This document shows, piece by piece, positions 695-22,040 of a DNA stretch of 64,000 bases. Each line of letters opens with the position of its first letter. Position 1 is the first letter of the stretch. Under the pieces are notes generated by a model that did not search any database, had not been told where the DNA came from, and worked only from the letters and a program-made list of their open reading frames with translations. The position numbers and the translations under genes are program-made. Origin of the DNA: Neophaeotheca triangularis (lineage: Eukaryota); the NCBI GenBank assembly GCA_054600435.1, contig BAAIJX010000001.1, forward strand, positions 1,054,001 through 1,118,000, read 5' to 3'.

Positions 695-1827
695 ATTGCC
701 TCTCTCTCTAGTAGCTCGTCCTCGAGCTAGCACTCATAAATATAGTTATATAGGACCCTAGTATAGCACGTATGTTAGTATCCTCGTTAAAAACCTTAGT
801 AGTGTCTTTACTAAGGAAAAGAGTGATACTACATACTACCGTCATACTATTAGGTCCCTAGAGTGAATTCACCCCAAACCTGAGTTCGCTATAGCGAGGT
901 GCATTATTGTTATGATAAGCGGTATTAATGGCTACGTGGCGGTGATCTAGTAGGGTAGTAATTACTAGTAGAGCCTTAGCGTAATTATGCTATAATTATG
1001 CGGAGGTGACCTACTAGCCGCTTCTCTTTCGAAGACTTCCTCCTTTTAACTACAACAACAATAACAGCCTCTACTCCGTCGTAGTCCCTTCGGTATACTA
1101 GTCTACCTTTTAATAAGGTAACCTTCTTTATTAGTAAGTGAACTTTAGTTCTTTATGTATACGCTACTATTAGTCCGTATGTAGTTCTTATTGTTCTTTA
1201 ATAATGAAACTAACCTCACCTAGTTTCCTATTATTACCTGCTTCTAGTGACCTTTCGAAAACCTTACCTAGCGCGGTTTAATAAAAAGGCGCTCCTCGTA
1301 CCTCTAACACCTTCTTGCCTTCTTTATTAACTACTTTTTTCGTGATCTCGCTATCGCCCTTTTTTCCGCTAGCTTTATTCACTACCTTCATTACTCTACT
1401 ACTATTCTATCATACCTCCGCGTGTTAGTAAGCGTCTAAAGGCGCTAGTCGACTATAGCGTTAGCGCTATAGCCATTAATAGTAAGGGTACCTTTACTAT
1501 AGATAGAGCGATTATCGCTAAGGGAGTCTTTATGACTAAGGGCTACTATTAGATCAACACTAGTAGTTTTATAGAGGAGGAGTTAAAGGATCTAGTTAAT
1601 GAGTCGAAGTCTATCAAGAAGGATTTGAAGTTAGAGGGTGTTAGTACGAAGCGTACTGTAGCTATTAAGGGCGTAGGCTCGAAACGTAAGTATGCTATAG
1701 GTAATAATAGTAAAGAGAGTGAGTCTAATAAGGGTATACTAGCGTTCTGTCGCTTCGCCGACATCGATAAGGGTAAGAAGCTTACTCCTATTAATGTTAA
1801 TCGCCCTCGTTATTCGCGCTACATTAA

Positions 1828-1979
1828 TGTTATGGTAAGAGGGAGGGAGCCCTTTTGGTTTAGTAGGGAAGGTAGTAGCCTAGCCCTAGGCTAGCTACTT
1901 CTACCTCTATAGCTAGATAGCTTCATTCATCTATCTTGTTTACATCTCACACTTTGTACTACACCTATTAGTCGTAGTA
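1828..1979 (+). repeat. 5' LTR of element B
   Basis: Colinear with 14588-14739; followed by AT-TAGTAGCTA, a possible RIP-altered TGGTAGCTG primer-binding site. Confidence 0.95.
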
Positions 1980-2045
1980 ATTAGTAGCTAAGAATAGCAA
2001 GGATCCCTTGATTACTAATACTAGACAGCTAGCTCTAAACCTATA

Positions 2046-2235
2046 AGTCGTCTCTACCTACTAAAGTCGTCTTAACTAGCTAAAGTCGTCTCGACACCCT
2101 AGAGTCATCTTAGCACCTCAAGGTCGTCTCGACACTTTATAGTCGTCTCGACACCCTAAAGTCGTCTCGACACTGTGATGTCATCTCGACACGCTAGAGT
2201 CGTCTCGAACCTCGCTAGGCGTCTCGGTACCGTAC
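2046..2235 (+). repeat. Tandem array of ~10 x 19-bp units (core AGTCGTCTCGAC) in the 5' leader of element B
   Basis: Cores start at 2046, 2065, 2084, 2103, 2122, 2141, 2160, 2179, 2198, 2217. Confidence 0.9.
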
Positions 2236-2690
2236 CGCTATCCTAACACTACCTACCTATCTCGGCCTACTATAGGCGTTACTACAACCCCTCGGTCGTT
2301 AGCGAGCCCCTAGTTCGTCTCGAACTACTCCGAGCGCTACGATACTTATTAGCCGCTTCGAGCTAACCTTACGCTACTTAACGACATCCTACTACTCTAA
2401 GTCGATTAGTGATACACATTAGGTTCGAAGGTACACTACCTTATAAGAATATAAGACTAATCCTAGACCTAGTATCGATTATAAGTGTCTCTATACATGC
2501 CCGAGCCACTATAGCGCTTAGTACCCACGCCTCTAATCCCTTTCGCCCCTCTACCTAAGCTACTTAGCATTAGAACCCCATATTGCCCTCCCCTTTCCAC
2601 TACTCTAATTTAGTAGTTTACGGAAGCTATAAAGGCCTTCCGACTCCGCTTTCCGCCCATAAGTTTAGTTAAGCGCTTACCGATTGAACT

Positions 2691-5600
2691 ATGTTTATTA
2701 CACTAGACCCCTTACCCGAACTACCTACGTAAATCGTACTCGTAGCTTACTAACTTCACGCTTTCTACTCCTACCCCGGCCGCTCGAAAGCCGTCTATAG
2801 TAGGAATCCTTAACTCTAGGACACCCTTCTCCTAATTACCTAGAGCTACCCTATTAACTAGGACCTTAGAGAGTTTAGCTTCCCTACTAGTTAGTTAGTC
2901 GAAAAATCACTTATTACTCTAATCGTGTACGACTTACTTACCGCTTTTGAGGGGATATACTACTACCTAGCCCTCTACTTAGACCTACCCGAGCTAACCC
3001 TTATAGGTGTACTAGCTACTATTATTACTACTAAAAGCTGCCCTATATGTCCCCTAAGGAAAGTTATAGTCGCCCCTATGAGACAGGTTATAACTACTCC
3101 CTAAAAACCCCCTACTATAGAAGAACCCTAGCTTCCTATAGCTATTAATCCGGTCTACGACTCCCTACTAGCGACTACTCCCCAACAAATCCTCGCTATA
3201 CTAGACTCCTACCCTTCCCTAGCCGTTAATCCTATCTAGTACCCCTTACCGCTTACGCTACCTTTAGAGATCTAAGTACTACTAAGTAAAGACATTAGCT
3301 CTACTATTAGCGACGACAGCCCCCTAGAACCGTCATAGTACCCCGGTTTCGAGGACCTACTAAAGACTAAGCGGTCGACGCCCTCCGAGCCTTTATAGCC
3401 CTTACTAACTATAAAGGCCTCCTCGGAGTCACCTCTATGTACTTATAATGAATTTAGAAACGCCCCCTTCCCCTTCCTCGCGCCTAATTAGACTTTTCCC
3501 TACTAACCTGTATTAATAGTCGTGATAACGTCTAGATAGGAAGGTACCCTCTATAACGGCCCTATCGACTACGACGAGGACGACTATTAGTTAGCTCTAG
3601 CTAGCCTAAGTGCTAGGACCTAGGGGAAATAACCCTAATAGGATCTAGAGCCGGATTATATTACACGAGACAGCATTCGGGAGATGCTCTATGAGGCGGT
3701 AGAAGAGACGAGAAGTGCTTTAGTCGCCGAGTTCTAACATACTATAGTATAGGTTCGCTCTAAAGCTAGTACTGATCTCGATAAGCGCTTCTAAGCGTTT
3801 CGCTATAAACTCGGACAACCTAGACTACTCCTAAACACTACCTCGTACTAGCCGTTACCCTCTATCGAATCCTAATAGGAGATTCGTTATCATGCCCCTC
3901 CTCATGACGAGCGTCTTAGGAGAGCTAGTTTATTCGCCTACCCTAGCGAGGAACAACTAAATGTACGGCCTCTATCCCTCTAGCGACAAATCCCCCGTGA
4001 CTCCCTACCTAGATACCGTACCCGGGATGAGCCTAATAACCCTAGCTCTTTAAGCTTAGACTCTAACTACTACTTATACTCGCGAAGGGAGCGTTATAGG
4101 GATCGTCGCTCTCGTAGGACCTCCCGTAGTAGACGCGACTCCTACTACGACTATAACTAGAACGCGTCATGCTTACGTTCTCGCTAGGGCAACTTTAGAC
4201 CTAACGATATAGGCTATTTCGATCTATATCTCCTAGTCATAACTAAGGCACTAGTAGGTAACTCTATTACTTATTAGAACAAACAATTCTTCTACTCCGT
4301 TCACTATTTCCTCTAATCTGCCTAGGATTACTCTACTATTAACTCCGCTACTACTACGAGGTAGTAGTTACTGAAATGCTTATGTAGAGGCGCGAGCTAG
4401 TAGTTTATTAGCTAACTCACTGATGCCGATAGGGCCTACCTTCGCAGTAGCTATAGTATCGAACATTAGGAGATAGCCCTACGCGACAAATTCCGTGTCT
4501 TAGTCATAACTACGCTCACTAATCTTAACAAGGAGCTCTTTTCGCGCGATAACATGTAGTAGGGGAGAGCTCCCTCTAAGTTCGTACTAAGCTACTACTA
4601 ATAGGCTTTAGAAGTATAGATCGATAGCCTAACTACTAGGATAGCTTAGTGTTAGCTTCGAATCGAGCCCTAGCTCTAATGAGATATCGATAAGCCTAAC
4701 TATACTACTATATAGGAGGAATTAATACGTGAGATAGAGGATTACATAGACACTTGGGCTAAGTTATACCCCCTCTACCCTACTAACCTACTAAGTAAGC
4801 ATTATTATCCTAACCCCCTAATCGATACTAATAGTATAGGTAACCGCTACTTTAGAGGCGATAATCGCTATACGCCTAACCCTAACCTCTAGGCTCGACT
4901 TCCTAGAAACGGAGTAGACCGTTACCTGCTAAGATAACAACCCTAGAGTGCCCCCCCTACCTAAAGAGAGTTCGGTTTATAAGACAATGTAAGCTATCTA
5001 TAGAATTAAGGTCGCTAACGCCTACCTTACTAGGACAGATAACCCCCCTAATCAGCCCCCCTACGTACTTAGCTAAGGCTAGCTAATAATCACTTAGCCG
5101 ATATCGACGAGGATAACGAAGTCGATGACTATAATCATGTAGTAGAGCCCGACGAGTTAGAGGAGTACGAGGACTACGAGGAAGACGCCCTAGAAGTTAA
5201 CTTCGCTGACATCGTAGCCTATAACGATAACGACGACCAATTTCTCACTTCGTCTAATCTAGTCTAAGCCTATCTAAACGAGGCTTTAGCCTCTAGCCTT
5301 ATTATAGCTCCTATACTAGTAGTACCGCGACTAGCGCTATCCGTTTAGCCCCGCCCGGCTAAGCTTAGGTATTTGGAATGTAATGATTCTTTCGGTTCAC
5401 GAAACTCTCTCTATAGGCACTTATAGCTCGTATATAGCGCGGTAGAGGACTCTAAGTCTACCTAACTAGCTAAGGTTCCTAAAATGACTTCCTTACCTAA
5501 GTATAAAGAGGAACTCCTAGTCGTTAAATCATTAGCTCTCGGGACTAACTATTAAGGATATGCTTTCCGTAATTTTTACTATCTCCGTCTCGCTATTCGA

Positions 5601-8600
5601 CTAGCTAAGTTAGGCGTCGACTACTCCGTCTACCTCGATATAGGAGCTGTTATATTAATAATTGACAAGCGATTTTTGGCTACTTACTTACCTAGTATAT
5701 AGCTCTACAAACTAAAAGTGCCTTTTTAGGTATATAGAGTTAGTTCCTAACTACATACTTGCTCCGAGTACGCCGAACTTACCTTCTAGACTCTTACCGA
5801 TACCCTAGTAGGAAGGGGCCTCTATGAGATGACCTATAAGGTATACATTATTAGCGACTTAAAACCTTTAATGCTCATTTCTATAGACATTATTACCCCC
5901 TAGGCAATAAAGATTGACATCCCCTATAAGCTCGTGACTATTAGAGCCTATAGAAACGCTAAAGTACCCCTACTCATCAAGCCTAGAGACCGCTTAAAGC
6001 TCGGGTTGTCACTAAAAGCCACACACCCTATCACTATTCTACTACGCTTATTAGCGAAAGTTCCCTTAGCCTAGATAGACCTCCCTATAGATAGGGATTT
6101 CGACTTCACACCTAGCCTAAACCTTCCTCCTAGGTTAAAAGGATATAACTATACTACTAACGCTAATTTGGCCTTTATACTAATTAGGAACGACTTACTC
6201 TAACCCGTAACGCTACTAGCTAGGAAGCCCCTCGGCCGTTTAACTAAGTAGACCGACGAGGAGGGCTATCACATTAGCCCTAACAACTATTACCTAGTAG
6301 GGCTCCTACCTAAAACCGTTTTTAATGGCCTACCTATAGCTGACTAGCTAGTCTTACCTAATGGAATCATAGTGTTCGGCGATGACATATAGGTAGTAGC
6401 CTTTAACATGTTGTTAGCCGACTTCCCCGACTTGTTTGTCGATAAAGGCTAAACTGTAGACATTCCTAAGCATCGTCACATACCTATCTATCTTAAAGAT
6501 AGCTAGGAAAAGGAGAAGCTATCTATAAAGGGGTATCCGCTCTACGCCTTAGACCGCGTTATGCTTAACGAGGCCTATAATAGACTATACCGCTAAGGCA
6601 AAATGGAGTGGTCTTATAAGTATATAGCTTTTAGCTCCCTAGTTTTTGTCATGTAGAAAATAGTCTATTAAGATAGAGCCCTAGTAAGAAAGGGTCGTAT
6701 AGTCGTTAATATCCGCAACCTTAACCTCGTTATAGTCAAAGATAGCTACCTACTCCCTCTCTAAGAAGACCTTCTTTAGGCAACATAAGGTACTAAACTT
6801 ATCTTAGTCATAGACGTAGTCGCCTTTTTCTTCTAGTGGCTTACTACCGTAAAAGACCGGTATAAGCTCGCTGTCAACTCCTATTATAGGCAGGAAATTT
6901 TTAAGGTCGCTATTATGGGTTTCAAAAATTCAGTAGCCTATGTCTAGAGGGAGCTTAACAATATCCTATACTACCTCTACCCATTTTGCCGCGCTTATAT
7001 AGACGATATTGTCATCTTTTCCGCTAACCTTAACGAGTACCTCGACTACCTCTAATAAGTGTTCACTGTCCTATAAGGATACTACGTCAGTATTAGCCTA
7101 GTCATAACCTTCTTAGGTTTCCCCTCTACCGCCTTACTCGGCTAGTAAGTTAGTAGACTAGGCCTAGCGACCTATGAGGACAAAATTAAGGCTATACTAG
7201 ACCTCTAGTTCCCTCGTTCCTTAAAGGACTTAGAGAAATATCTTAGGCTTACCGGTTAGTTACGACAAGCCGTCCCTTATTATGCCTAGATTACCTAGCT
7301 ACTTAAGGGTAGCCCTATAAAGGGTAACGCTAGAAAGCGTTACTTAGCTACTATAAAGGTCACTCTCGATATAGACGAGCTCTATGCCTAGGCATATACC
7401 GCTTTCGAGGCCTTATAGGCTATCTTTAAGGACTCCCCTTTCCTTTACTACCTTAATCTAAAGAGACGGCTTTATGCCGACGTCGACGCCTCTAAAGAAT
7501 TTGGGTTTAGAGCAGTCATCTATATAGTGGCTAGAGACCCCGACCTAGTTATGTCCGGAACGAAAGCGCTATACTTTCCTAGGAAAGACATCTAGCCTAT
7601 CGCCTTTTTAAGTAAGGGACTTACCCTTATAGAGAGTCACTATTAGCCTATAGAGTTAGAAATAGCCGGCTTGGTTTAGCTTCTACGAAAGGCACACTAC
7701 ATCATATAGTCGTCACTACTTCCCACTCTTATTTTCACTAATCATATAGCTATAACGGGCATCGCTACCTAATGTAGCCTCACTACTACTACTTATACTA
7801 ATAAGCTTAACCTCCGGCTAGTTAGAGCTAGCTAATATGTCTCCTAATTTAACCTAGACGTCTACTATAGGCCTAGCTATATCCACTTAGTCCCTAATGC
7901 TTTAAGCCGCCTACTCGGTAAACTCGCTACTCTAGTAGAGGCTCTTACTAACACGCTCGACCCTATAGCCTATAAGGAAGTACACTACGCCTCTATTAGC
8001 GCTACTGATTACGATAGCGCGGATGCTTAACACTTCCCAGATTTCGCTGATTTATAGGAGCCGTTAGCCTTCTACACGGCCTTAGTAGAAATAGCCGACG
8101 ACCTTAAGTAGGAGATTCGCGCTAGCTATCGTTTAGACCCGTACTAGGCCCCTCGCCTCCTCTAACTCTAGGCATAGGAGGAGCGCCGCTATCGCGATAC
8201 TACTAAGGAGTCGACGCCCTTATAAGAAGCTATGACCGCTCTATAGACCGTCCCTACTTAGCCTATAGAAGTCGTTAGCGAGACTAAGGATACTTTAGAG
8301 GGCGAGCCTAAATCATCCCTATTAGGCCTCCGATTCTTCTTACGCGACGACCTTATCTACTATAGAGATGACGCCGATAGCTAGGAACGCCTATATATTC
8401 CCTACTTAATCTTTAAGGAGGTTTTCGCGATAGCGCACGATAATCACCACCATACTAGTTTCTTTAGAGCCTATACTCGCGTTCAGGCTAGCTTTTATAT
8501 CCGCTACTTACCCTAGGAGCTACGACGCTATATCTCCTACTACCCGGACTACGTATTACACTAGACATGATAACATAGGCCCCTAGGCGAGCTCTAACCT

Positions 8601-9737
8601 ATAGAGGTTCGCCTAATCCCATATCACACTTAAACCGCCGACTAGGTACATGCCCTACCTCCTACCCTAACGGGCTTCGATTCCTTACTTATAGTTACTA
8701 ACCGCTTCTCTAAAAAGATCCTGTTAATTAAAGGGCGCGCTGATTAGTTAGCACCGGAATAGGTAGTAGCTTAGCTAGAGGCACTCCGAATAGCTAATTA
8801 GAATATTCCCACTATTCTTATTAGCGATAGAGATCCCCTATAGCTCTCTACTTTCTAGAAGGAAGTTTTTAGGTAGCTTCGTACTAGGTTCCTCGCTTCT
8901 ACTACCTACTATCTATAGACCGATGGTTAGTCTAAGCGAACTAACTAAACCGTAGAGATCGCTATCCGTTTCTTTGTCAACTCGAACCTAGACACGCCTT
9001 AGGATATAGCTCTACCCTATATCTAGTCGACGCTTAATAATGCCTAGAACGCCTCTACAAATGAGATTCTAAACATAGTTATCTAAGGCTTTAGAACAAA
9101 TTTAGACGCACTTAACACTCTTATCGAGCTCCTAGCTACAGATTACGTTACGCTTAGACAAGTCGTAAGGGACTAAGCGTCGGATGTACTAGCGATAGTA
9201 GCTGCCGTAATAAAAGACAGGTATGACTATACCCATAAGCCTATCTACTTCAAACCTAGCTAAAAGGTCTTACTTAAGCTCTAGTATAGTTACACTATCC
9301 CTAGTTTCATTCCGAAAAAGTTAGCTATATAGAGAACAGGCCCTTTCAAGATACTATAGGTAGTAGACCGACTAGCCTACAAGCTCGATCTCCCGCTATA
9401 CTAGAAAATCTACCTAGTAGTTTCCATTACTTAGTTAGAACTAGCTCTCTAGGCCCCGGATCCTTATAACTATAAGCCTACCGAATTAGGCCCCGTCTCT
9501 ATTAACGATAATAGGATTTCAGTCTGTGAAATCAAGCGTTTACTAGCTAGGAGAGTCTGTACGTAGTAGGGCAAGCCGATAAAACAGTATCTAGTGAAGT
9601 GGAAAGACTAGGGCCTAGCACATAATCTCTAGTATAACGCTAACGACTTAGCCGACGCTTAGGAGTTAATAGTAGAATACGACTATATCTATCCTAGTAT
9701 AGACGGCAACCTTAGGGTAAGGGGTAGACGCTATTAA
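2691..9737 (+). pseudogene. gag-pol: Single-frame gag-pol of element B (gag, C2H2 finger, protease, RT, RNase H, integrase, chromodomain); ends approximate
   Basis: All in one frame: DIGYFD (4206), (Y>C)LECNDSFGSRNSLYRHL*LV(Y>H) (5370-5435), YLD(I>T)GA (5631), KGRIVVNIRNLN (~6690), AYIDDIVIF (6993-7019), YADVDASKEFGF (~7473), AHDNHHH (~8433), YYL*TDG*SKRTN*TVE (~8907), YLVKWKD*G (9588). Stops are TAA/TAG at expected Q/W positions. Confidence 0.92.
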
Positions 9738-10232
9738 CTACCCCTACCTCGACTCGATTCCCTCTAGCTACCTTAGCTAGTACCACGACACCTAATAGTA
9801 GTCATCCTACCCCCGACACGCTACCCATTACCCTCCGCCTCCGAAGGAGAGCCTAAAGAGCTCCTATAGTAAGCTAACCCCTACCGCCTATATCCCGCTT
9901 TCTAACGCTCTAGAGCGGAAGTCTACTAGTAAGTTAGGAGGGTAGCTACTTATGCCTTTAGGGGTGCCTAAGGCATCTCGGCGGCATTACCATTCTTATT
10001 AGCGCTATCGATAACGCCCGCCGTCGCCACGACGACATATGACGCGGCACCTTTCACTTCTTAGCATGACTTCTTACTTTCCGCTTTTAGTAATAATAAT
10101 AATAACGCGACTCCGCACCTTTCTAAAAAAGTTCTCCCTTATCCTATGACTATACCTAGCCATAACACCCTTTTCACATAACACCTTCGCTCTATAATAA
10201 CACTTCTTCGTCTACCTACTTTATACTCTTAT

Positions 10233-13200
10233 ATGTCAGATAACTCTAACTTGTTACTACCTAGCGATAACATCTCTAAAACCGAGTACACCTCTACCTA
10301 CCCACTACTAGTAGCTCTTACGCTAAACGAGCTCATACTCTTACTATGCTTCATACTAAGATGCTTTCTTCGCATGTAAGAGACTAACTCAACCTAAAAC
10401 ACACGCCCTCGTCTCCTATAGGGAGAGAATAGTATAATAGCTAATACATCTTAACCCGCTACGCCTTTAGTAGTCTACTATTCTATCGAAAAACCAGACC
10501 TGCTACTAGCTTAGTGGTCTCCCTACTAGCGTGACACTTTCGCATGTAACGGATTGTAGATCCTAGATACCTACTCTCTCCCCTCTCTATCGCTACCATT
10601 CTAGCCCTACGAGGCCTAGTTAATTGAGAACATAGTAGTAGTTCTCCTTTACGCTAACCTTAGCGTCTTATTCACCTAAGACACTTTCACTCTTAGCCTC
10701 TTAGTAGTAGCTAATCTTCTCGACCTAAAGCATGAAGACCTTCGCCCTTAGACGTTAGCTAAGCTTCTCTTTACCTACTTCCGTTTTATGCCGCTCGACT
10801 CACTCTTTAGTGGTACACTCTTCCTATACCTTTTAGAGCTTAACGACGACTCCGCGTTACTACTCTAGCTTAAAGCTATCTACGGCCCCTAGGGTATAGA
10901 ATCCGTAGCGCTCATATTAGCTTATATAGGCCCGTCGCTTTTCGCCGGCCTTTCTTAGTTAAACGAAGAATACTAGCCGTTACTTCGCGCTTCGTTTCCT
11001 ATAGCCCTAAAAGACCTAAAGGACTATACCCTTACCTAGATTAAGTATACGAAGCGCGTAAAGGTTATCGTTACGCTAGGTTTTACCTACCTCGTTAGCT
11101 ATATGACAGCCGAGCAACTCCTTCTCGACGGAGCCCTACTCCTATAGGAATTAGCGATATAGGTAGCTACCTATTATAGGAGAGGAGACCGACTCCTCGC
11201 TACTCTCGAAGCTTAATTAACTATCGACAATACTTTCTACGACACTAAGCGCTAGAGCGCTATCTATAAAGGCGTCGAGCGCGAAAACCCTAAGGAGTCC
11301 CTAGAGTACTACGATAAGTAGGCTATCGCTAAGCTCGCCCTTAAATAAGCTAAACTATATATATGCCTAGTAGACTATATCTTAAACGCCTAGCCCGGGG
11401 TAATCGCCTACTTCGCGTACGAAGACGATAACTAAGTCATCGCTATACCTACTAATCCACTCTACTTTTCGATCTTCTACGCCTTCTCTATAGACGCGGT
11501 AGCCCCTATAGAAGAGCTCGCTAGGATTACTAAGTGCGAGCGCTAGGTAACTAATCGTCTAGGTCAACTCTACTCTTTCGAGGTCTTAAAGACGTTAGCA
11601 CTAGACGACAGATTCACTATAGCACTTTCCTACTTCGTCGAAGTCCTTTTAGAAGGTCGTTACTCTACGCTCTAACAAGCCTACTAGAAGACTAAGAACG
11701 AGCCCTATAGCTATACCGAGCTCGTCCTCTACGCTATCGGCCTTATAGTTCGTGACGCCTAGTCACTATCCCCTTTCGTTAACTCTACTATAGGCGGCGG
11801 AATTCCTAACCCCTTCACTACTATACGCCGCTATGACGGTATCGATAAGGTAGAGGACTAGTTTCTAATGTACGACAAAACCCGCCCTAAGAGCGCCGAA
11901 ATTTCCCGGGAGCTAGGCTCTAAGCTTAACCTAGCTAAGGCTTAGGGCTACTACTAGTACTATATAATACACTCCTATTTCTCTCGCGAAAACCTCCTAC
12001 CTAGGAATGCTATCCTGAGCGATTGTGACGTATACGAGCTCATACTACTCTATTATATAGATAAAGTGCTCTCGAAGAGGTTCCTATACGATAACTAGCC
12101 AGCAAATTTTAACTAGGACGTGTTACCACTCCCTATTCGCCGCCCCTATAGCCTACTAGTAGTTATCTATGTTAAAAGCGACAACTACTACTACTATGTT
12201 TATGTCTAGGGCGTATACACCCTTAGTAGTAGAAGACACTACTATAACACCTTAGAGGCAGCCCACGATAACGATCGCTATATCGACTACGACACTAATA
12301 ACCTCGTCTTTTACCCCTAGATACGCCCTAACACAGTAGGTGTATTAAAGTCTTATCACTCCTAGAAAGGAAAGCCTGTCTTTAGATACGACCTAGACAT
12401 AGAGGTTAATTGGACTAAAATCGAGTGGCCTAAGTACGTAGATATAGACCGCGTATAGGACGACTTACATATATACCTCGACATATAAGCCTCTATAAGC
12501 CTAACACACTAAGCCGTCCCCTAAGAGGTCGTCGAGATCTAGCTTTAAGGCCGTAATACCCTCGCTAGGCCCGTCCCCTACATTCCTAGCTAAGAGGCAA
12601 TTAGGGAGCTTACTAACGTCGCGGAGTTCTACGACACTAACTCTTTCCCAATCTAGCATTATGTAGTCAACCTACCTCTACCCTAAGACTAGGACGATGT
12701 TTTACTAGTAAGCGCCGCCCTCCCTCTAGCGGTATCAACTAGTAAAACTAGTAATACTTTCCGTTTGCCCCTATCCCGCTCGACTCCTACTAGGCCCTTA
12801 ATAGGGACTACCCCCGCCCTAACTACTACGACGTCATATCGCTTACCTATAGGACTAGCCCTATTCCCGTCCTAAAGCACGACGGCTATAAAGCACTACG
12901 GCCCTACGGCACTCCCTAATCCTTTCGTTAAAGACAAACACCACGCCTTAGTAGCCGTAAAGGCTCCCTATAAGGGCGCTTTTGCGTAAAGCGCTACTAG
13001 CGCTAATGCCCTAATGATGTTAGGAGCCCGACAGGACCGCCCTCTACTACTCGATAGCGAGATGACCGCCGATTCTTAGTACGGCTATGATGACGCGGTA
13101 TAGAGATACTACACTGCCCTTAAGGTATTAGAGCGCGTCTACATTAAATCGGAGCGCCTCTAGGAGGAAGCTAGGGAGTAGCTAAGACTAATAACTAACA

Positions 13201-13676
13201 TTAAGCGCGACACTCTCGCTATAGTAGCTACTAACATTAAGCTAGCGAAGGATAGCGCTATACGCCACGGCGATCTTAACATTATCGACCTACTACCTTA
13301 GGTTACTATAGCATGGAACAACTAGGCTTTTAAGTAACTAGACGCTCCCCCTCCCTCTATAGGAAACGCCTTAGGTATAGACGTTACTTAGCTATTCTAG
13401 GTCCTAGTTCCTCCTAAGGACATTCCCGAGCCCGACTTCTAGTCCTTACTAATAGTAGGTAGGATAGCGCTACGAGCTACTACCGGCCTATAAGCTACCG
13501 TCGAACTAACCCCTATAGGCCCTACTCGTAACACTCGATCTAGAGTACTTACTAGTAGCGCTAAGCTAGCGACTATCCCTCCCTATAGCTTAAACAAGAC
13601 GCCCTACCCTAATAAGTATCTACTACCTACGAATGCTCCCTAGTTAGTAAGCAAACGTACCCGTACCGTTCTATAG
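10233..13676 (+). pseudogene. Extra ORF (~1150 codons) of unknown function downstream of pol in element B, RIP-degenerate
   Basis: From ATG 10233 one frame reads as protein-like for ~3.4 kb (e.g. KGVERENPKESLEYYDK, ELVLYAIGLIVRDA, VNWTKIEWPKYVDIDRV) with only TAA/TAG stops and no apparent frameshift. No domain recognised; 3' end uncertain. Confidence 0.65.
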
Positions 13677-13699
13677 CTCTAGGTTGTAAACGGTACTCT

Positions 13700-14072
13700 A
13701 GGTGAAATCCCTTATAACTACTAGGCACCTTCGCTCTACTAACTTAGGGCGTAATCCCTTTTAACTATTAGGTACCTTCGCTCTACTAACTTAGGGCGAA
13801 ATCCCTTTAACTATATAGTACCTCCGCTCTACTAAAGCGAGGCTTATACCTCTAAGCTTATCCTAGTATAGCTTTATACTCTCTACGAGCTCTATATAGA
13901 CTAGCGTTTTAACAGCTCTTCCTAGTATTAGCTTTGTCCCTCTACGAGCTTTTTCTATAGACTAGCGATTTGACAGCTCTACCTAGTATAGCTTTATCCC
14001 TCTACGAGCTTTTCTATAGACTAGTACTTTAATAGCTCATTCTAGTATGGCTATCGCCCTCTACGAGCTTTT
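13700..14072 (+). repeat. Two tandem repeats in the 3' region of element B (~47 bp x ~3; ~59-60 bp x ~3.5)
   Basis: ACCTTCGCTCTACTAACTTAGGGCG repeated within 13700-13835; CTAGTATAGCTTTATCCCTCTACGAGCTTTTCTATAGACTAG repeated within 13862-14072. Confidence 0.85.
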
Positions 14073-14266
14073 ACGCGAGCGACATATGACCGGTATAGTA
14101 CATAGTATATTTATCTAAAGCATAAAGGAACTTCCCTATACTACTAAAACTCTCTAGCCTTATTTTAACCCTACCCTGACTTCCTACCACGACTAGCTAT
14201 TACGCTACTACCTCGCGTAGCGCTAATAGCTCCTCTAACACTATAAAGCAAATATAACCCCTCGCC

Positions 14267-14545
14267 GTCGAGACGATTTCTCTATATCGAGATAGCTCTT
14301 CGCTACCGATATGGCCCTATAATGTCTAGATAACCTTTCCCTATTAAGACGACCTCTAGTAGTCGAGACGACTCCTAATAGTTAGGACGACTCCCGATTG
14401 TCGACACGACTCCTAGTAGTTAAGATGACTCCTAGTTGTCGACATGACTCTAAGTAGTCGTCACGACTCCTTGTTGTCGAGACGACTCTAGGTTGTCGAG
14501 ACGACTCCTACTTGTCGAGATGACTTCCCCTTAGGGAAGACGACC
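14267..14545 (+). repeat. Tandem array of ~11-15 x 19-bp units (core GTCGAGACGACT) before the PPT of element B; reverse complement of the 5' array
   Basis: Cores at 14343, 14362, 14381, 14400, 14419, 14438, 14457, 14476, 14495, 14514, with weaker copies from 14267. Confidence 0.9.
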
Positions 14546-14587
14546 TTAGCCTATAAGGACATGTACGCCTCTTAGGGGGGGGGAGTT

Positions 14588-14739
14588 TGTTATAGTAGGA
14601 GGGAGAGAGCCCTTTTAGTTTAGTAGGGAAGGTAGTAGCCCGGCCCTAGGCTAGCTACTTCTACCTCTATAGCTAGATAGCTTCATTTATCTATCTTGTT
14701 TACATCTCACACTTTATGCCACATCTATTAGTCGTAGTA
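14588..14739 (+). repeat. 3' LTR of element B
   Basis: Preceded by the GGGGGGGGGAG polypurine tract, followed by TSD ATTAA. Confidence 0.95.
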
Positions 14740-15813
14740 ATTAAGGAGCTCTTAAGTAACGTTCTCGATAGGTCTATCGACTTTATCCTACTATATAAGA
14801 CAGTGCCTTCCGCGACCGGATCAGTATGTAATACCTACTCTAACGCGAAGTAATCGTGCCTCGAGGTAAGCCTACTATAGCTCTATCGTCATTACGAGTT
14901 TTCACTAACGTCTCTTTAGATCATTCCTAACCTCGCGAGCTAGCGTAGCTATCATGTCTAGATGAACTATACCACTATGCTCTATTATGCTAATCGCGCT
15001 AGTAGTAGCGCCGCTAGTTCGCTAATGTACCTTAAGGTCTTAGAAGTTAACGCTAAGGTCTCCTAGTACTTCTATAAGAATAACTACGCTATCATTCTAA
15101 TAGGGGGCCTTCATCGTTCCGGTCCTAATAACGATAAGATCTTAACTCTATACGATATAGCACACCTAATCACGGATTAAACTCGCGACTTCGCTACGAT
15201 CGTCACTAATGCTGTCGAGAGGCTTATCGCTATCTACTATATAGAAATGTCTATACTTATTAGCGAGATGTCTAGCTACTATCGCGCTACGCCTTCTTCT
15301 TCGCTAGTATACGATATGCCTAGTTTTAGTAAGTCGCCACCTTACGATAAGACCGTTAGTATGCTAGTACTAGTAGTAGCTCCTAAGGTACTAGTAGTAG
15401 AGACTAAGGGTCTAGTTCGGAAGAGTAGTAGGGACGATGCCGGTACGCTACTAGAGGTGTCTTCTAGTAGAAGTTCTTCTTCTTCGCTAGAGTTAGATAA
15501 TAAGGAGGATAAGGCTCTAAAGAAGCCTTCTAGTCTCTTAGGCTTCCTTAGGATTCGCTATAGGGACGACGCTACTCTATTAGTAGGAGAGAATGTAGAG
15601 AAGTCTATTAGTACCGAAGATTAGCTAGAGGCTAATATTGCTAAGGTTTCGAAGGAGTTAGACACTAGGGCTTGAGCGTTTATTAGATTATTTGCATACT
15701 CTCTATAAGCGCTATTGTCCTGTCGCTAGCCTATCTATAGTAGCTATTAATTAAGAAGCTTATGTACTACGTCCTTTTCCTATAGTTTTCTTCTTTTTTC
15801 CTAGCTATGTATT

Positions 15814-18800
15814 CTCAACATTCTTTTTCTTCGGGCTTTATGTTTTCTTTCTATACTTCTTTTTCATGCTACTATAGGTCTACTAGTGTTGCTTAAAGTC
15901 TACGATCGCTTCTTTCGCGTTGTTTAGATGCTTCTCTTTCTCTTAGGTTCCCTCTTCTATTAGCTAATCTTTCTAAAGAACATAGTATGTCTCATTACTA
16001 TTATCGTCGAGACCGGATGCTGTTATTTCGTCGACAACCTATTTATTACCTCTATTGACTTCTCGCTCTACTAGTAGTATGAAGTCGGCGCGTTAGTAGT
16101 ATAGTTCGAGGAGGGAGATATAGAAGATGTTATAGATCTTTCTAAGGTATAGAGGTAGGGCTAATCAGTATACTTATTTTCTAACCCTTATTATAATTCG
16201 GAAGGGCCCTACATAACGTGAGGAGTACTTTTTTGTTAGTCTTAACGTTTTCAGGTTTTTCGCGGAAATAAGAACCTCGTTATTAACACTAAATACTATA
16301 GGATTGTGTTTTTAGTCATAGTATTCCGCCTACTTACTAATAGTATGCCGAATGTTATCCTCGACGACTTTGCGAATTGCTTTCTAGTTTTCGGTTCTTT
16401 CTTAGAGGTTAGGGATTGTTAGTTCGCTACCTCCCTCTCTAACGGCGTTGTCTATAATGCCGCTAGGCTGTTAGGGCTCCGCCCTATAGATAGTAAAGAA
16501 CGGCGACACTTTAGTTAATATACTTATACTATTATTGTGGGCGAATTCAGCCTATATGAGGTAATAAGGCCAATCTGTCTATATAAAGTTAATAAAACAT
16601 CGTAGATACTATTCTATTATCTAGTTTTGCCTCTCCGTCTACCTATCGGACTAAGGGTAGTATGCCGTCGATAACTTACGCTCGGTTTTCTAATACTAAA
16701 GGAGCTCTATCTAAAATGCGGAGGTGAATATACTGTCTCTATTAGTTATAATCGATTTTAGCTTACCGAACTTAGTAAGAATTTCATGCTCGAAAATATT
16801 AGCTAGTTAGTAGGCCCCTATCGCTTCGCTAATAGGGATGTACCTCGTAAACTTTAAGAAGTAGTTAATAATAACTAACATAGAATCGACTATTTCACCC
16901 TTATATGTCTCTACGATAGGCAACTTAACTACTATGTCTATAGACTAATACTTGAAGATCTCATTAGCACCTAGAACCCTTAGCGATTATAATGCGCCGT
17001 AGGGCTAGTAGTAGCGCGACTTGTGTCTTTAGTAGGTATTACACCTAAGGATATACTCTTCGACATCCTTAGTCCACTTAGACTACTAAAACTCCTTATA
17101 GAAGACGGCTTTAGTCTTCCCTACTCCTAGGTATCCTACTAATAGGTCCTCGTAGTAGTAGCTTAGTATAGCGGCCTATAGGCTTTCTACTAGTAGCATA
17201 TATATCTTTCTATTAATCTTAAGAAGTCCTATAAAACTAACCGACTATATAGGCGCGGTGCCGTTAGCGTCTCTATAGTGCTATCCCTTATCGATCTCTT
17301 TACGAATGCATTTAGTAAAGGGGTCTCCCTACTATACATATAATATATCCGCTCTAAGGTCAATTCGGTCTACTACTATATTAGGCTCTCTAATGTCTAG
17401 CTCGGTAATAGCGAGTATACCTAGCTACTTACCTATAGGGTCATGATAGGTTAGCGCTACTATAGCGATAGAGCTAGTTAGGTTTAGTTCACCTCCCCCT
17501 TAGAGCGTTCGCTTAGTGTATATAGTATCATTACTCTAAAGCTTATTGTTTAGAGGACTAGTGTCTCTAGTAGCTATCGTGTAGCCTACTAGCGAGGTAG
17601 CTAATACCTAGTGGTTTACTAGCGCTATGTATCTTAGCGACATAGATAGGATCTCTACTCTATCTTCGGCGGCTATCGTGTAGCTACTCGCCGGAACTTC
17701 GGTAGCCTTATAGGGGCCCGCTAGGGGAGCGAAAAGCCTAGTTAATGTAGGTAGTATTTCTGCCCTACTCAGTTCTCTATTAGCCTCCATGTTAGGATAG
17801 CGCGAGAGCCTATCTACTCTAGGGTTTAATTTACCTTTATAGTATATGATCTCGATGTCGTATTATAATAGCTCTTCTATAGCGCGCGCTTAGCGGCCTA
17901 ACAATTTCTTTATTAATAGGAAGTATTTCAGATTGTTATAATCTATAAGTACCTAAACTTTACTCTTAGCCGACAATATATAGTGCCGCTATTAGCGCGT
18001 CGCCTCGACGATAGCGAGTAGTTCCTAATTATATACTAGATATCGTAACTCTAGCCCTTTAAGCTTCTTAGAGTAGTATATAACTAGATACTATAGCGTG
18101 TCTAAGTGCTGCTATATAAGTATGCCTCCTAATATGTATCCTAATATATTAGTCTTAAGGCGGGTCTCTAGTATAGCGTTAAAGTGCTATAGTACTAGTA
18201 CTGAAATAAAGCTGTACTTCAACCTTTTAAAGGATTTTTAGGCATCTTTACCTAGTAGCTACTATTTACTACTCCTATACTATAGGTAGTCCGTAAGGGG
18301 AGCGGTAATCTTTATATATCCCTCGATGAAGCGACGATAGAAATTCGCGAATCCTAGGAACACTTAGAGTTCTTTTAAGGACTTTAGTATTAGCTAATCC
18401 TAGACTATAGCTATCTATAGGGGCTCCATCGCTATTCCGGTAGAGTTAATAATGAAACCGAGGAATCTAATCTCTTAGACTATGAACTCGTATTTCTCGA
18501 GACTAGTATATAGCTTAGCGTTAGCGAGCTAACGGTAGACCGCTCGAATGTGTTCGTAGTGTTCTACTTTAGTACGGGAATAGATAAGAACATTATCTAT
18601 GTATACTATATAGTAGTGGTCAACTAGCTCTATAAGCACCTTATTAATAAAGGCCTGAAATAACGCTAGTATATTAGCGAGTCTAAAAGGCATGACCTTA
18701 TATTAGAAATAGCCGTACTAATAGCGGAATGCTGTCTTCTACTCGTCGCTCTAGGCGATACGTAAATAGTAGTATGCTTCGACTAAGTCGATTTTCGAAA

Positions 18801-19743
18801 ACCATATTAATCCGCGGACTCTATCTAAGAGTTTACTAATAAGTAGTAAAGGATGCTTATTCTTAATAGTAATTTTATTCAAGCCTCGGTAATCGACGTA
18901 TATATAGAGTTTGCCGTTTTTCTTCTTAACGAATAGTAACGGTATACTAGTAGGGCTAGTACTAGGCTTAATGCGGTCCGTCGCGAGTAGGTTGTTAATC
19001 TACGACTACATTTCCTCGAGCTCTAGCTCGGAACATAGGTAGATTAGTCTACTAGGAGGATTCTTCCCCTCGACTAGTTCAATATAGTAGTCATAAAGCA
19101 TATACGGAGGTAACTCTTTCGCCTTCTCTAATTTAAACACCTTAGCGTACTCTACTAACTACTTAGGTACCCGCGGCTCTACTAGGGTCCTATATAGGTC
19201 TTCTACGCTAATAGCGAGGATAGATGCTCTACCATTAATATCTTAGGCTAGTTCTTCGGCCTCGATAATTTCGACTTCTTCTTTATTATACATACTACTA
19301 TAGCGTCACTATACTAGTAGCGACGCGAAATTAAGCTATGCTTTTATAGATCGGATCTAAGGCATTCTAAGAATCATTTCATAATCCTTCTAGTTTACTA
19401 CTTCGAACATTTGTAGAATAGTCTGAACTATACTGTCTAAATTAGCGACTTTAGTATAGAGTCGACATTAGCTTACTATTAGGGCTTCGATGTCGCTAAA
19501 GGCTCGTAGCCTACGAATCCGGTCACCCTTTATCAGTAGGTTATACTAGACCGCGATGTCTTCTAAGATAATATTATAATACGCTCCTATATCGATAAGC
19601 CTATAGGCCTCGAAGCGTAGCCTGTCGTAGGTTCGATTATATATCTTTACGACTACCTATAGGCGCTCCGTTAATGCACTACCTACTTACTACCCTAAGC
19701 CTTTAAGGCTAACAATTAAATGACCTAGGGCTAGGCTTTTCCC
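15814..19743 (-). pseudogene. pol: pol of element A (protease-RT-RNaseH-integrase-chromodomain), RIP-degenerate
   Basis: One frame contains LID(I>T)GA (~19582-19599), VMPF(R>G)LAN (~18675-18696), VYID(N>D)VLIY (~18580-18606), LSTAY(Y>H)P*SD(R>G)*TERQN (~16624-16674), GPFRI (~16195-16209) and chromodomain YYVL*KD*LIEEGT*E (~15940-15987). End approximate. Confidence 0.92.
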
Positions 19744-20888
19744 TTTCGGCAATTTTCTTACTAGTAGCCTTTACTACTACACTTGAAATAAAGGTTTTCT
19801 TTAAGGGCTTTATTGTTTCATTCGCTACTATTAGTCGAACCTATACGGTTCACACTAGTCGCTAGTGTCCTATTAGTATACTAGTAGCGCGGTTTAGAGT
19901 TATTATCGCTTATACTCTAGTTTTGTTCTCTTTTCTTATAGCTAGAACCTTTTAGGTCGGTCTTATATAGCTTATCTACTATCTCGTCTCTAGCGTCCTA
20001 GCCGCTATAGCTAGTATTGTCGAGGCGTATATAAAGCGCGATGAGGTTATACTAGTTATCTAGTACTATTAGCTAGGCATTTAGCTTAGCCTTAAGGTTT
20101 TCCTATAGACCTATCTTAATGAGGGTAAGGAGTATATACTCTAGTAGTAGAGCGACATCGGCCTCATAGAGGGAGTCTTCGATATACGAGAGGTAGTCGT
20201 GAATAGATTAGGTTGCTCCCTAAACATATCTAAAACCTCAGAACGCTATGTTTATAGCGCGGTTTTCAGGGTCGAGGATCTAATCTAGTAGCTATTCTTT
20301 AAACATAGGCTATTTCATCTCTTTGCGTTCGAGTCGTGACTCTTTACTCTCCTAGTTCTAGCTAATACGGCCGTATAGACAGCCCGTAGTATACTAGACA
20401 TACTCATACTAATAAAAGTAAATATAAGGGTACGTCTTAAACACATACTCGTATTACTAGATAAATGTCTATACTTTTAGGAGGTTAGGGTGACTCCTAT
20501 AAACTACTAGTTTAGCTAAGCGAAAAGCTTTCTTAATATCGATGTAAGACTTTCGCTCCTTTATCGTTATATCGGTAGGTAGATCTTCGTCTACTATCTA
20601 CTTATATACTACTAGGGTAGGGGCAATGTCCGCTAGGTCCTCTAGTTCGATATATCCTCTTTTAGACTCGTCGCGGGGGACCGTCGCTCTATTAGCGGCT
20701 CGCTAAATAGGCGCTATACGCTCTACTAATTGTTGTCGGAGTTCCGTAATAGTAGTAGTAAGGACCGTGTATTAGTCTATAGCCGCCTCTTCTTATTCTT
20801 ATAGGGTGTTAACTCTAGTAATAGTGTTAGGGGAGTCTACTAGGTTAGTATCATCGACCTATAGGCGTAGCGAGTACGATAGTACTAT
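19716..20888 (-). pseudogene. gag: gag of element A (RIP-degenerate) with CCHC zinc knuckle
   Basis: The minus frame reads (Y>C)FKCSSKG(Y>H)**ENCRKGK at ~19740-19790, i.e. CX2CX4HX4C after reversing RIP. A likely start ATA (<ATG) at 20888 is in the same frame. Confidence 0.8.
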
Positions 20889-20937
20889 AATGTCTAAGCG
20901 AATCTTAACCTAAGAAGGTTCTAAGATCGAATAGAAT

Positions 20938-21160
20938 TATAAGACCGAGACTATAACTTAGTTAGGATCACGGCGTAGTAAGAGTAGGACGTAATAATGG
21001 TAATAATAGTAATAGTCCTTTAATATAGAAACTATTCGATAGTAGATAGGAGACTTCACTATTAGCTATCTTATATACTTTCGTAGTATATATACTTAGC
21101 ACTCCTAAGCTACTCCGTAGCTTAGGCCGCCGATGTCCCGCTAGCGCCGCGGTCGTGATA
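20938..21160 (-). repeat. 5' LTR of Gypsy element A
   Basis: Second 223-bp copy; minus-strand TATATAAG at 21070-21077; gag starts ~50 bp downstream. Confidence 0.95.
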
Positions 21161-21339
21161 TAGTCGAGAATTAGGGATTGTTCGTAGCGGTTACGAACAA
21201 TGTAGCGGGATCAGAAATTAGTCGAGTCGGTCGAGTTAGTCATAGCGGACGGAAGCTACTTTAATTAGTCGCAATTCATTCTATGTGTGTCTGTCTAGGT
21301 AGGTGTCTAAGATATAAGTACTAGGGGAGGTGTACCTAT

Positions 21340-22040
21340 AAGGCCCTATCGCATTATGAGGCTCCGTCGTATTATAAGGCCCCGTCGCGTTATAAAGGCC
21401 CCGTCGCATTATGAGGCCCCGTCGCATTATGAGGCCCCGTCGCATTATGAGGCCCCGTCGCATTATGAGGCCCCGTCGCATTATGAGGCCCCGTCGCATC
21501 TTACCCCGTCATATTATAAGGTCGCCGTCGTATTATAAGGCCCTATTACATCTTGCCCGGGCCCCGTCGCATTATGAGGCCCTATCGCATCTTGTCCTAT
21601 CGCATTATGAGGTCGCCGTCGTATTATAAGGCCCCGTCGTATCTTACCCTGTCGTATTATGAGGCCCCGTCGCATCTTGCCCCATCATATTATAAGGTCG
21701 CCGTCATATTATAAGGCCCTATTACATCTTGCCCGGGCCCTATCGTATTATGAGGCCCTATCGCATCTTGTCCCGTCGCATTATGAGGTTGCCGTCGCAT
21801 TATAAGGCCCCGTCGCATTGTGAGGCCCCGTCGCATTATGAGGCCCCGTCGCATTGTGAGGCCCCGTCGCATTATGAGGTCGCCGTCGTATTATAAGGCC
21901 CCGTCATATCTTATCCCGTCGTATCTCGAGATTGCCGTCGCATTATAAGGGCCCGTCGCATCTCGAGGCCCTGTCGTATTGCGAGGTAAGACCCTGTCGT
22001 ATTGTGAGGGCCCGTCGCATCTTGAGGTCGCTATCGCATT
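21340..22040. repeat. 18-bp minisatellite (GAGGCCCCGTCGCATTRT) with interspersed shorter variants, inside the TIR element
   Basis: Directly visible; it produces the spurious (MRRGLI)n and (HYEAPS)n ORFs. Confidence 0.95.

Follow-up and report, generated by a model that had tools for sequence, protein, structure and literature searches.

A RIP-mutated third coding region in a 12.9-kb Ty3/Gypsy chromovirus of Neophaeotheca triangularis and its probable place in an unnamed ascomycete protein family

Introduction

Fungal Gypsy elements usually measure 5-8 kb, follow a MAGGY/Tf1-type layout and are normally viewed as gag-pol only, with surplus sequence being put down to nesting. A locus of Neophaeotheca triangularis raises the question of what else such an element may have encoded. 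Within the 64,000-nucleotide stretch of DNA analysed here (the window; contig BAAIJX010000001.1, positions 1,054,001 to 1,118,000), a single long terminal repeat (LTR) element of 12,912 bp, heavily altered by repeat-induced point mutation (RIP), occupies positions 1828-14739 and has some 3.4 kb of additional sequence between its chromodomain and its 3' repeats. An earlier note on this DNA held that one frame, starting at position 10233, encodes a large accessory protein there, either as a separate third open reading frame (ORF) or as an extension of gag-pol into a polyprotein of ~3600 residues, and it recognised no domain in the translation. We consider it probable, at roughly 70%, that this segment is the RIP-destroyed remnant of a separate third gene (ORF3) of a Ty3/Gypsy chromovirus, which was present when the element multiplied and the product of which belonged to an unnamed family of ascomycete proteins. 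The copy of the element in the window is dead.

Results and discussion

A coding frame beyond the chromodomain

The codon starts at 2691, 4206, 6996 and 9588 in gag-pol and at 10233 are all multiples of three, so that ORF3 lies in the gag-pol frame (frame 0), as had been claimed. From 10233 to 13676 this frame comprises 1148 codons, of which 61 (5.3%) are stops, 18 being TAA and 43 TAG, with no TGA; the single frame interrupted by TAA and TAG only that the earlier note described is therefore present. The other five frames of the same segment contain 109, 104, 101, 107 and 136 stops, with 2-10 TGA codons in each. We estimate that a stop content of 5.3% is about the yield of full RIP of glutamine and tryptophan codons. 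No frame contrast is seen downstream (13677-14587), where the three forward frames have 26, 23 and 25 stops.

Codon usage was scored with a log-likelihood model trained solely on pol (5100-9680), comparing in-frame with off-frame codons. This model gives +0.206 per codon for frame 0 of 10374-13676, as opposed to -0.22 and -0.20 for frames 1 and 2. Windows of 450 nucleotides within 10534-13683 score 0.11-0.30, compared to 0.15-0.29 for pol windows, and among 60 control windows from the adjacent RIP-mutated element, read on its antisense strand, the maximum is 0.193. The frame-0 signal drops at ~9700-9800, immediately past the chromodomain, comes back at 10470-10560 and fades after ~13450. The coding signal is beyond chance, and 10233-13676 is probably a genuine former third gene.

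ORF3 and an unnamed protein family

When the ORF3 translation, with X in place of stops, was searched with phmmer against 1.84 billion representative proteins, nine hits were obtained at E<=1e-3 (best E 5.9e-28), three of them at <=1e-10 and none at <=1e-30, with lengths of 417-1688 residues. A word-index search with an alignment of the core region described below added a tenth member, P0012 (1710 residues), and the relatives referred to throughout are these ten proteins (P0003-P0012). Two have names, hypothetical protein K431DRAFT_312371 of Polychaeton citri and B0A51_11254 of Rachicladosporium sp., and the remainder are JGI (Joint Genome Institute) entries called "hypothetical protein" or are unnamed. 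Pairwise identity is mostly 24-38%, with the 78% between P0011 and P0012 as the exception. A word-index search with residues 380-700 of P0004 returned P0004 alone, the method being insensitive for this family, and a metagenome locus scan with P0011 yielded two low-complexity matches (L001 and L002) that were not used.

A hidden Markov model (HMM) built from the ten intact relatives, with the window sequence excluded, finds a single hit in the six-frame translation of the window, at 11439-12542 in frame 0 with E 8.6e-46, and all other rows have E>=0.22. Consistent with this match, BLASTP aligns ORF3 to P0004 with 28% identity over 349 residues (E 3e-29), and hhalign aligns it to the family with a probability of 99.8% over query residues 402-770. 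The matching part is thus the middle of ORF3 (11436-12543). The match contains two blocks, each recovered by its own HMM at the positions given in Table 1. In the relatives the mid block reads S-I-F-R ... C-E-x-x-A-L ... G-L-A-x-R, and its ORF3 match is the sole hit of that model in the window below E 1. The core block has the motifs L-P-P ... D-x-D ... R-R-Q-x-G-x-P ... Y-T-L-x-G-G-G-H ... W-x-R-P, within which P-P, D, R, G-x-P, Y, G and W are invariant columns of the family. A large accessory coding region at this place, past the chromodomain and ahead of the 3' repeats, is supported, and the codon model and the family HMM both put its signal beyond chance.

The positions of the ORF3 stops carry further information. 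Tryptophan occurs in the relatives 6.3 times more commonly in columns aligned to an ORF3 stop than elsewhere (27 of 396 residues vs 1.1%), and the window has TAG codons at the invariant tryptophan of the family (9 of 9 relatives) and at a column that is tryptophan in 7 of 9. A TAG at a conserved tryptophan is the signature of TGG-to-TAG conversion by RIP in what would formerly have been a coding sequence for a protein of this family. A MAFFT alignment is suggestive, but only suggestive, of full-length collinearity between ORF3 and its relatives.

Pfam contains no family matching ORF3 at E<=1. None of nine relatives matches a Pfam family at E<=0.01, four of the ten show just scattered noise at E<=5, and reverse transcriptase, RNase H and integrase domains are found in none of the ten. 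The earlier statement that ORF3 has no recognised domain consequently holds as far as Pfam is concerned, but not for the middle third of the protein, which falls in a recognisable, if unnamed, family.

ORF3 within the repeated unit

RIP targets duplicated DNA, and its indices are usually read against thresholds of ~0.89 for TA/AT and ~1.03 for (CA+TG)/(AC+GT). The TA/AT ratio is 2.54 in ORF3 and 2.13 in pol, within an element-wide range of 2.1-2.8, and falls to 0.71 in the gene-bearing DNA of the window; the corresponding (CA+TG)/(AC+GT) values are 0.30, 0.39 and 1.23. RIP in ORF3 is thus equal to or stronger than that in pol.

In run X1, 284 contigs can be placed on 1500-15100 at >=80% likeness, and 174 of these are below 99%. 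By class, 110 contigs are at >=99%, 39 at 95-99%, 48 at 90-95% and 87 at <90%. Summed contig depth, which cannot be read as a copy number, lies at 243-511 in gag-pol and at 359-482 in 10126-13303, single contigs having ~120-150. Differences between these contigs and the window comprise 1671 transitions vs 282 transversions; two non-reference contigs have in common an indel at 11502, and indels at 13484-13524 occur in one. Diverged contigs are placed on both sides of 9742-9903 and of 10129-10212. Diverged copies of ORF3 exist in the X1 data, and because diverged contigs cover ORF3 in the same manner as gag-pol and RIP is equally strong in both, we regard ORF3 as part of the repeated unit. Two other runs under the same organism label, X2 and X3, gave no contig at >=80% likeness, and no RNA run containing the element was found; neither result is proof of absence.

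Predicted structure and role

The fold of the core was modelled from a nine-sequence alignment with P0003 residues 2-213 as its first sequence. The model has a predicted local distance difference test score (pLDDT) of 68.7 and a predicted template modelling score of 0.70, is ordered over 45-190 and has a mixed alpha/beta topology. Full-length P0004 is modelled with a mean pLDDT of 43.4 (709 of 1049 residues <50), and the model has a helical block at ~370-410, the core at ~480-640 and two long helices at 828-921. In the ESM Atlas no usable match was found for a whole protein of the family, and the best score for residues 300-650, 0.81, is at noise level. A DUF6590 cluster from the same source (score 0.78) was rejected, as none of the relatives matches DUF6590 in Pfam.

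No membrane or signal-like segment was found in the ten relatives, whose top 19-residue Kyte-Doolittle means are 0.79-1.68, and this low maximal hydropathy suggests that the ORF3 product was not an envelope protein. Clusters of basic residues lie within the last 40 positions in 8 of 10 relatives, and ORF3 ends in KRTRT, which resembles those basic tails. On the basis of these tails a nuclear protein may be proposed.

Organisation and origin of ORF3

In the linker between pol and ORF3 (9735-10232), frame 0 has 11 stops, six TAA, five TAG and no TGA, in agreement with the earlier description of this segment. That each of these stops could be created by RIP, and that gag-pol and ORF3 are in one frame, would suit an arrangement in which translation of gag-pol ran on across the linker and into ORF3, whether by readthrough or because there was no stop, to give a polyprotein of ~3600 residues. 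We consider this arrangement improbable. Stops in the linker show no frame preference, numbering 11, 10 and 16 in the forward frames, and the frame-0 codon score in 240-nucleotide windows starting at 9660 to 10380 is only -0.03 to +0.08 per codon, so that the coding signal is about zero over 9750-10470, vs 0.15-0.30 on either side. Moreover, no relative of 392-2000 residues, the size range searched, carries pol domains. A separate ORF3 is favoured by the sequence evidence because of this silent spacer, the lack of frame bias among the linker stops and the absence of pol domains from the relatives; of the two forms that the earlier note had left side by side, therefore, the third ORF is the likelier and the ~3600-residue extension the less likely. 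A common frame is expected by chance in one case out of three and is probably such a coincidence. The word-index search with the core alignment also returned no pol-ORF3 fusion among its five proteins of 392-2000 residues, which is weak evidence given that the method is insensitive and missed members of its own alignment. A still less probable explanation, to which we give very little credence, is that ORF3 is an independent mobile element that inserted into the Gypsy element towards its 3' end. Nesting does occur at this locus, where the whole 12.9-kb element lies inside another Gypsy, and a survey of fungal LTR elements ascribes extra domains to multiple insertions that give rise to "complex transposons" (PMC3248453). 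However, the region around 9700-13700 is bracketed neither by terminal repeats, direct or inverted, nor by a duplication, and neither ORF3 nor its relatives have a transposase, reverse transcriptase or other mobile-element domain. In addition, ORF3 lies on the strand of pol, RIP is uniform and comparable to that of pol, and diverged contigs are placed across the junction region (9742-10212) as well as over ORF3 itself. The nested insertion that, according to the earlier note, would have refuted its claim is thus not what these data display.

The most serious alternative, unlikely in our view although by no means negligible, has the same anatomy as our preferred reading and differs in origin and role. 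In this case the ORF3 family would consist of ordinary ascomycete cellular genes, one member of which was captured and carried as a passenger without a role in transposition. None of the ten relatives has a retroelement domain, each being a protein on its own. P0004 and P0006, both from annotations of named genomes, form clusters of one member each, and P0004 is located on a 313-kb contig. In the six-frame HMM search, moreover, the ORF3 family has no match in the adjacent Gypsy element. The annotated genes without cluster partners in the two named genomes are weak evidence for a host gene. Set against this, the family is sparse, with nine representative clusters at E<=1e-3 in 1.84 billion (albeit for a degraded query), and very divergent at the identities noted above. 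P0011 lacks an initial methionine and is recorded on 26 contigs, the P0009 cluster has 18 member sequences, and P0003 is on a 3.4-kb contig. A sparse, fast-evolving family and records on multiple contigs or at contig ends point, again weakly, to a family that is borne by elements. ORF3 itself is sense-oriented, exactly fills the space from pol to the 3' repeats and resembles pol in its codon usage, which also argues against a passenger gene.

Several observations weigh against a separate, element-borne third gene as we describe it. Significant homology is confined to query residues 402-770; as a result, the first ~400 and last ~380 codons of ORF3 are supported solely by stop depletion and codon usage. 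The HMM of the N-terminal family block (F-x-x-x-Q-R-K ... L-L-G-R) has no ORF3 match at E<=100, and that of the C-terminal helical block has none either, its best matches lying elsewhere with E>=1.3. The start codon has several in-frame candidates, ATG 10233, ATG 10374 and ATA 10434/10437, and when a RIP-altered start was sought at the onset of the coding signal, the isoleucine preceding W-S-P-Y proved not to be ATA. ORF3 has been read in one RIP-mutated copy, with other copies being known from contig placement alone, the depths quoted above are of summed contigs, and the element was found in one run, X1, which is probably the window's own source. In their annotations the relatives are hypothetical proteins that stand alone, and the single-member clusters of the Polychaeton citri and Rachicladosporium sp. 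proteins would fit a host gene as well. Finally, the core offers no functional lead: a sequence profile search of the PDB gave no hits at E<=1, the best Foldseek matches to its fold have E 4.6 in the PDB and E 3.1 among the viral structures of BFVD, and VIA-align found no chain with Z>=2 among 48,161.

As a third gene of the chromovirus, ORF3 would have been its own cistron behind a non-coding spacer of ~0.7 kb after pol, and would already have been in the element when the latter multiplied in the present genome. Its product, of perhaps ~1,000-1,150 residues, would be a member of an unnamed, Pfam-less and fast-evolving family of large ascomycete proteins that are predicted to be mostly disordered, with a helical mid block, an alpha/beta core of ~150 residues, long C-terminal helices and a basic tail. 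Such a protein may have served as a soluble accessory factor in the nucleus, translated from an internal or subgenomic transcript or from its own start site, and might have acted on the nucleic acid or chromatin of the element rather than as an envelope.

Comparison with known elements

The element resembles Ty3/Gypsy chromoviruses in its LTRs, 5-bp target-site duplication, polypurine tract, reverse transcriptase-RNase H-integrase order, Tf2-type SH3 domain and putative C-terminal chromodomain. It differs from the usual members of that group in its length of 12.9 kb, in having a sense third ORF of ~1,000 codons past the chromodomain, and in the inverted 19-bp arrays located inside both LTRs. 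In errantiviruses and retroviruses the third ORF after pol is env, a position that ORF3 shares; unlike env, ORF3 has relatives without membrane segments and a core fold without a match among viral structures.

Extra ORFs are already known in LTR retrotransposons, and the layout of ORF3 is unusual, not unprecedented. Boty-like/BcGypsy1 elements of Botrytis cinerea are described as having an additional antisense gene, brtn (Zhao et al. 2011, as cited in PMC8365987), and are similar in being fungal Gypsy elements plus an additional gene the function of which is not known. ORF3 differs from brtn, as far as that description goes, in being on the sense strand and downstream of pol. Plant Retand/Ogre/Tat-type Gypsy elements and rotifer LTR elements are reported to have additional, captured ORFs or an extended stretch from pol to the 3' LTR (PMC11963269, PMC5408684). 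The likeness of ORF3 to these plant and bdelloid rotifer elements is one of layout; they belong to other kingdoms, and the ORF3 relatives are solely fungal hypothetical proteins. An "ORF3" in PMC13159263 was set aside because it belongs to a Penelope-like element. No description of the ORF3 family, or of a sense ORF3 of like size in a fungal Gypsy, was found in the literature, most subscription journals and Repbase being excluded.

If our preferred reading is correct, the extra 3.4 kb of this element is a former gene, and ORF3 ties orphan ascomycete "hypothetical proteins" to a possible retroelement origin. Should the relatives prove to be element-borne, fungal chromoviruses would gain a new accessory gene, intact copies of which are available for experiments; should they be host genes, ORF3 would clearly exemplify the capture of a gene by an LTR element in fungi. 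In either event, annotators would do well to check the surroundings before masking a member of this family as junk or calling it a host gene. A bolder and doubtful proposal is that the family is the third gene of a whole ascomycete chromovirus lineage, with a product that binds the GTCG-N3-CGAC arrays of the element sequence-specifically. Were this true, the "hypothetical proteins" of Polychaeton, Rachicladosporium and the JGI entries would be such ORF3s, and a fungal retroelement would possess its own cis-sites and trans-acting regulator, like complex retroviruses.

Anatomy of the element

The features of the element are collected in Table 1 and agree with the 12.9-kb Gypsy element of the earlier note, including its 152-bp LTRs. 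The LTRs are 92.8% identical, all 11 differences between them being transitions, and the TA at their ends is the expected RIP product of CA. TAGTAGC at the primer-binding-site position is likewise probably a RIP-changed TGGTAGC. In run X1, position 1822 is followed directly by 14740 in two contigs, which lack the intervening 12,917 bases (five letters at the joint being ambiguous) and represent the unoccupied site in further copies of the repeat around the element. Because these contigs skip all of it, the 12,912-bp unit is one insertion.

Table 1. Coordinates of features of the 12.9-kb element within the window.
Feature	Positions	Strand	Details and basis
Target-site duplication ATTAA, left	1823..1827		Read directly
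5' LTR	1828..1979	+	152 bp, TG...TA ends
Primer-binding-site position, ATTAGTAGCTAAGAATAG	1980..1997	+	Assigned by location alone
5' array, core GTCGTCTCGAC	2033..2243	+	19-bp unit, ~9 copies
gag-pol remnant, frame 0	2691..9734	+	Pfam matches, stop depletion, codon signal
Spacer without coding signal, pol to ORF3 (approximate limits)	9750..10470	+	Codon scores, stop counts
ORF3 remnant (limits of the earlier note)	10233..13676	+	Strong coding signal ~10470-13500
ORF3 helical mid block (predicted)	11439..11759	+	Block HMM E 1.2e-6
ORF3 alpha/beta core (predicted)	11868..12479	+	Block HMM E 2.5e-39, fold model
Tandem repeat, 47 bp	13704..13835	+	2.8 copies, 89% matches
Tandem repeat, 59 bp	13861..14072	+	3.6 copies, 83% matches
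3' array, core GTCGAGACGAC on + strand	14330..14544	-	19-bp unit, ~9 copies, inverted vs 5' array
Polypurine tract AGGGGGGGGGAG	14574..14585	+	2 bases upstream of 3' LTR
3' LTR	14588..14739	+	152 bp
Target-site duplication ATTAA, right	14740..14744		Read directly

Both tandem repeats follow ORF3 and precede the 3' array, and the 47-bp repeats start 28 bases past the last ORF3 codon. Each 19-bp unit of the two subterminal arrays contains GTCG-N3-CGAC. The more specific GTCGWSWCGAC occurs nine times in the window, where 0.06 occurrences are expected, and all nine are inside the arrays. Inverted subterminal arrays of this kind are unusual in LTR elements, and they could be putative protein-binding sites.

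Remnants of gag-pol

Frame 0 of 2691-10232 was translated, with X at stops, and searched against Pfam. Six matches are obtained, collinear and in Ty3/Gypsy order, with E values of 3.5e-6 to 0.34, each scoring below its curated cut-off; the weakness of these scores is due to RIP damage. RVT_1 (reverse transcriptase) covers residues 1336-1468 of the read-through frame (window 6696-7094), RNase H, detected with two models, residues 1570-1696 (7401-7778), the Integrase_H2C2 zinc finger residues 1909-1949 (8415-8537) and SH3_Tf2-1 residues 2193-2239 (9267-9407). The Chromo match at residues 2280-2330 (9528-9680) is in the expected place and weak (E 0.014, 15.8 bits vs a cut-off of 25.1). Over 2691-9734, frame 0 has 150 stops, as opposed to 204-298 in the other frames.

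About 1.5 kb (1980-3500) separates the 5' LTR from recognisable gag-like sequence. This region has a weak frame-0 coding signal from ~2900, of 0.09-0.15 per codon, and no Pfam match. Reverse transcriptase begins at residue 1336 of the frame, and the region upstream of it is therefore also longer than usual. Windows of 600 nucleotides within 3601-5101 have fewer stops in frame 1 than in frame 0 (e.g., 9 vs 13 and 10 vs 12), although gag-like text in 3600-5100 nevertheless reads in frame 0. The present copy may have local indels there, and another contig has indels at 4696/4698.

Genomic setting

Repeat DNA mutated by RIP makes up the first ~21 kb of the window (GC 0.38-0.46, TA/AT 1.8-2.8), and the remainder, with a GC content of 0.54, is gene-bearing and encodes a Zn2Cys6 transcription factor, a TrkH transporter, a copper amine oxidase and a BAG-domain protein. 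The TrkH exon reaches at best 67% identity, in Zopfia and Alternaria of the Dothideomycetes, and 66% in Aspergillus; the host is accordingly a Pezizomycotina ascomycete with no near sequenced relative in the database searched. The repeat that surrounds the 12.9-kb element (14745-21498 on the minus strand and 1-1827) is the other RIP-mutated Gypsy that hosts it, with RVT_1 (E 5.7e-22), RNase H, integrase zinc finger and Tf2-type SH3 domains. Summed contig depth in X1 is 1432 and 2244 over its two flanks, several-fold above that of the nested element. At 21400-21500 the minus-strand translation has a short-period repeat of ATGPHN, MRRGLI and CDGAS units, which resembles a tandem repeat where RIP-mutated DNA meets normal DNA.

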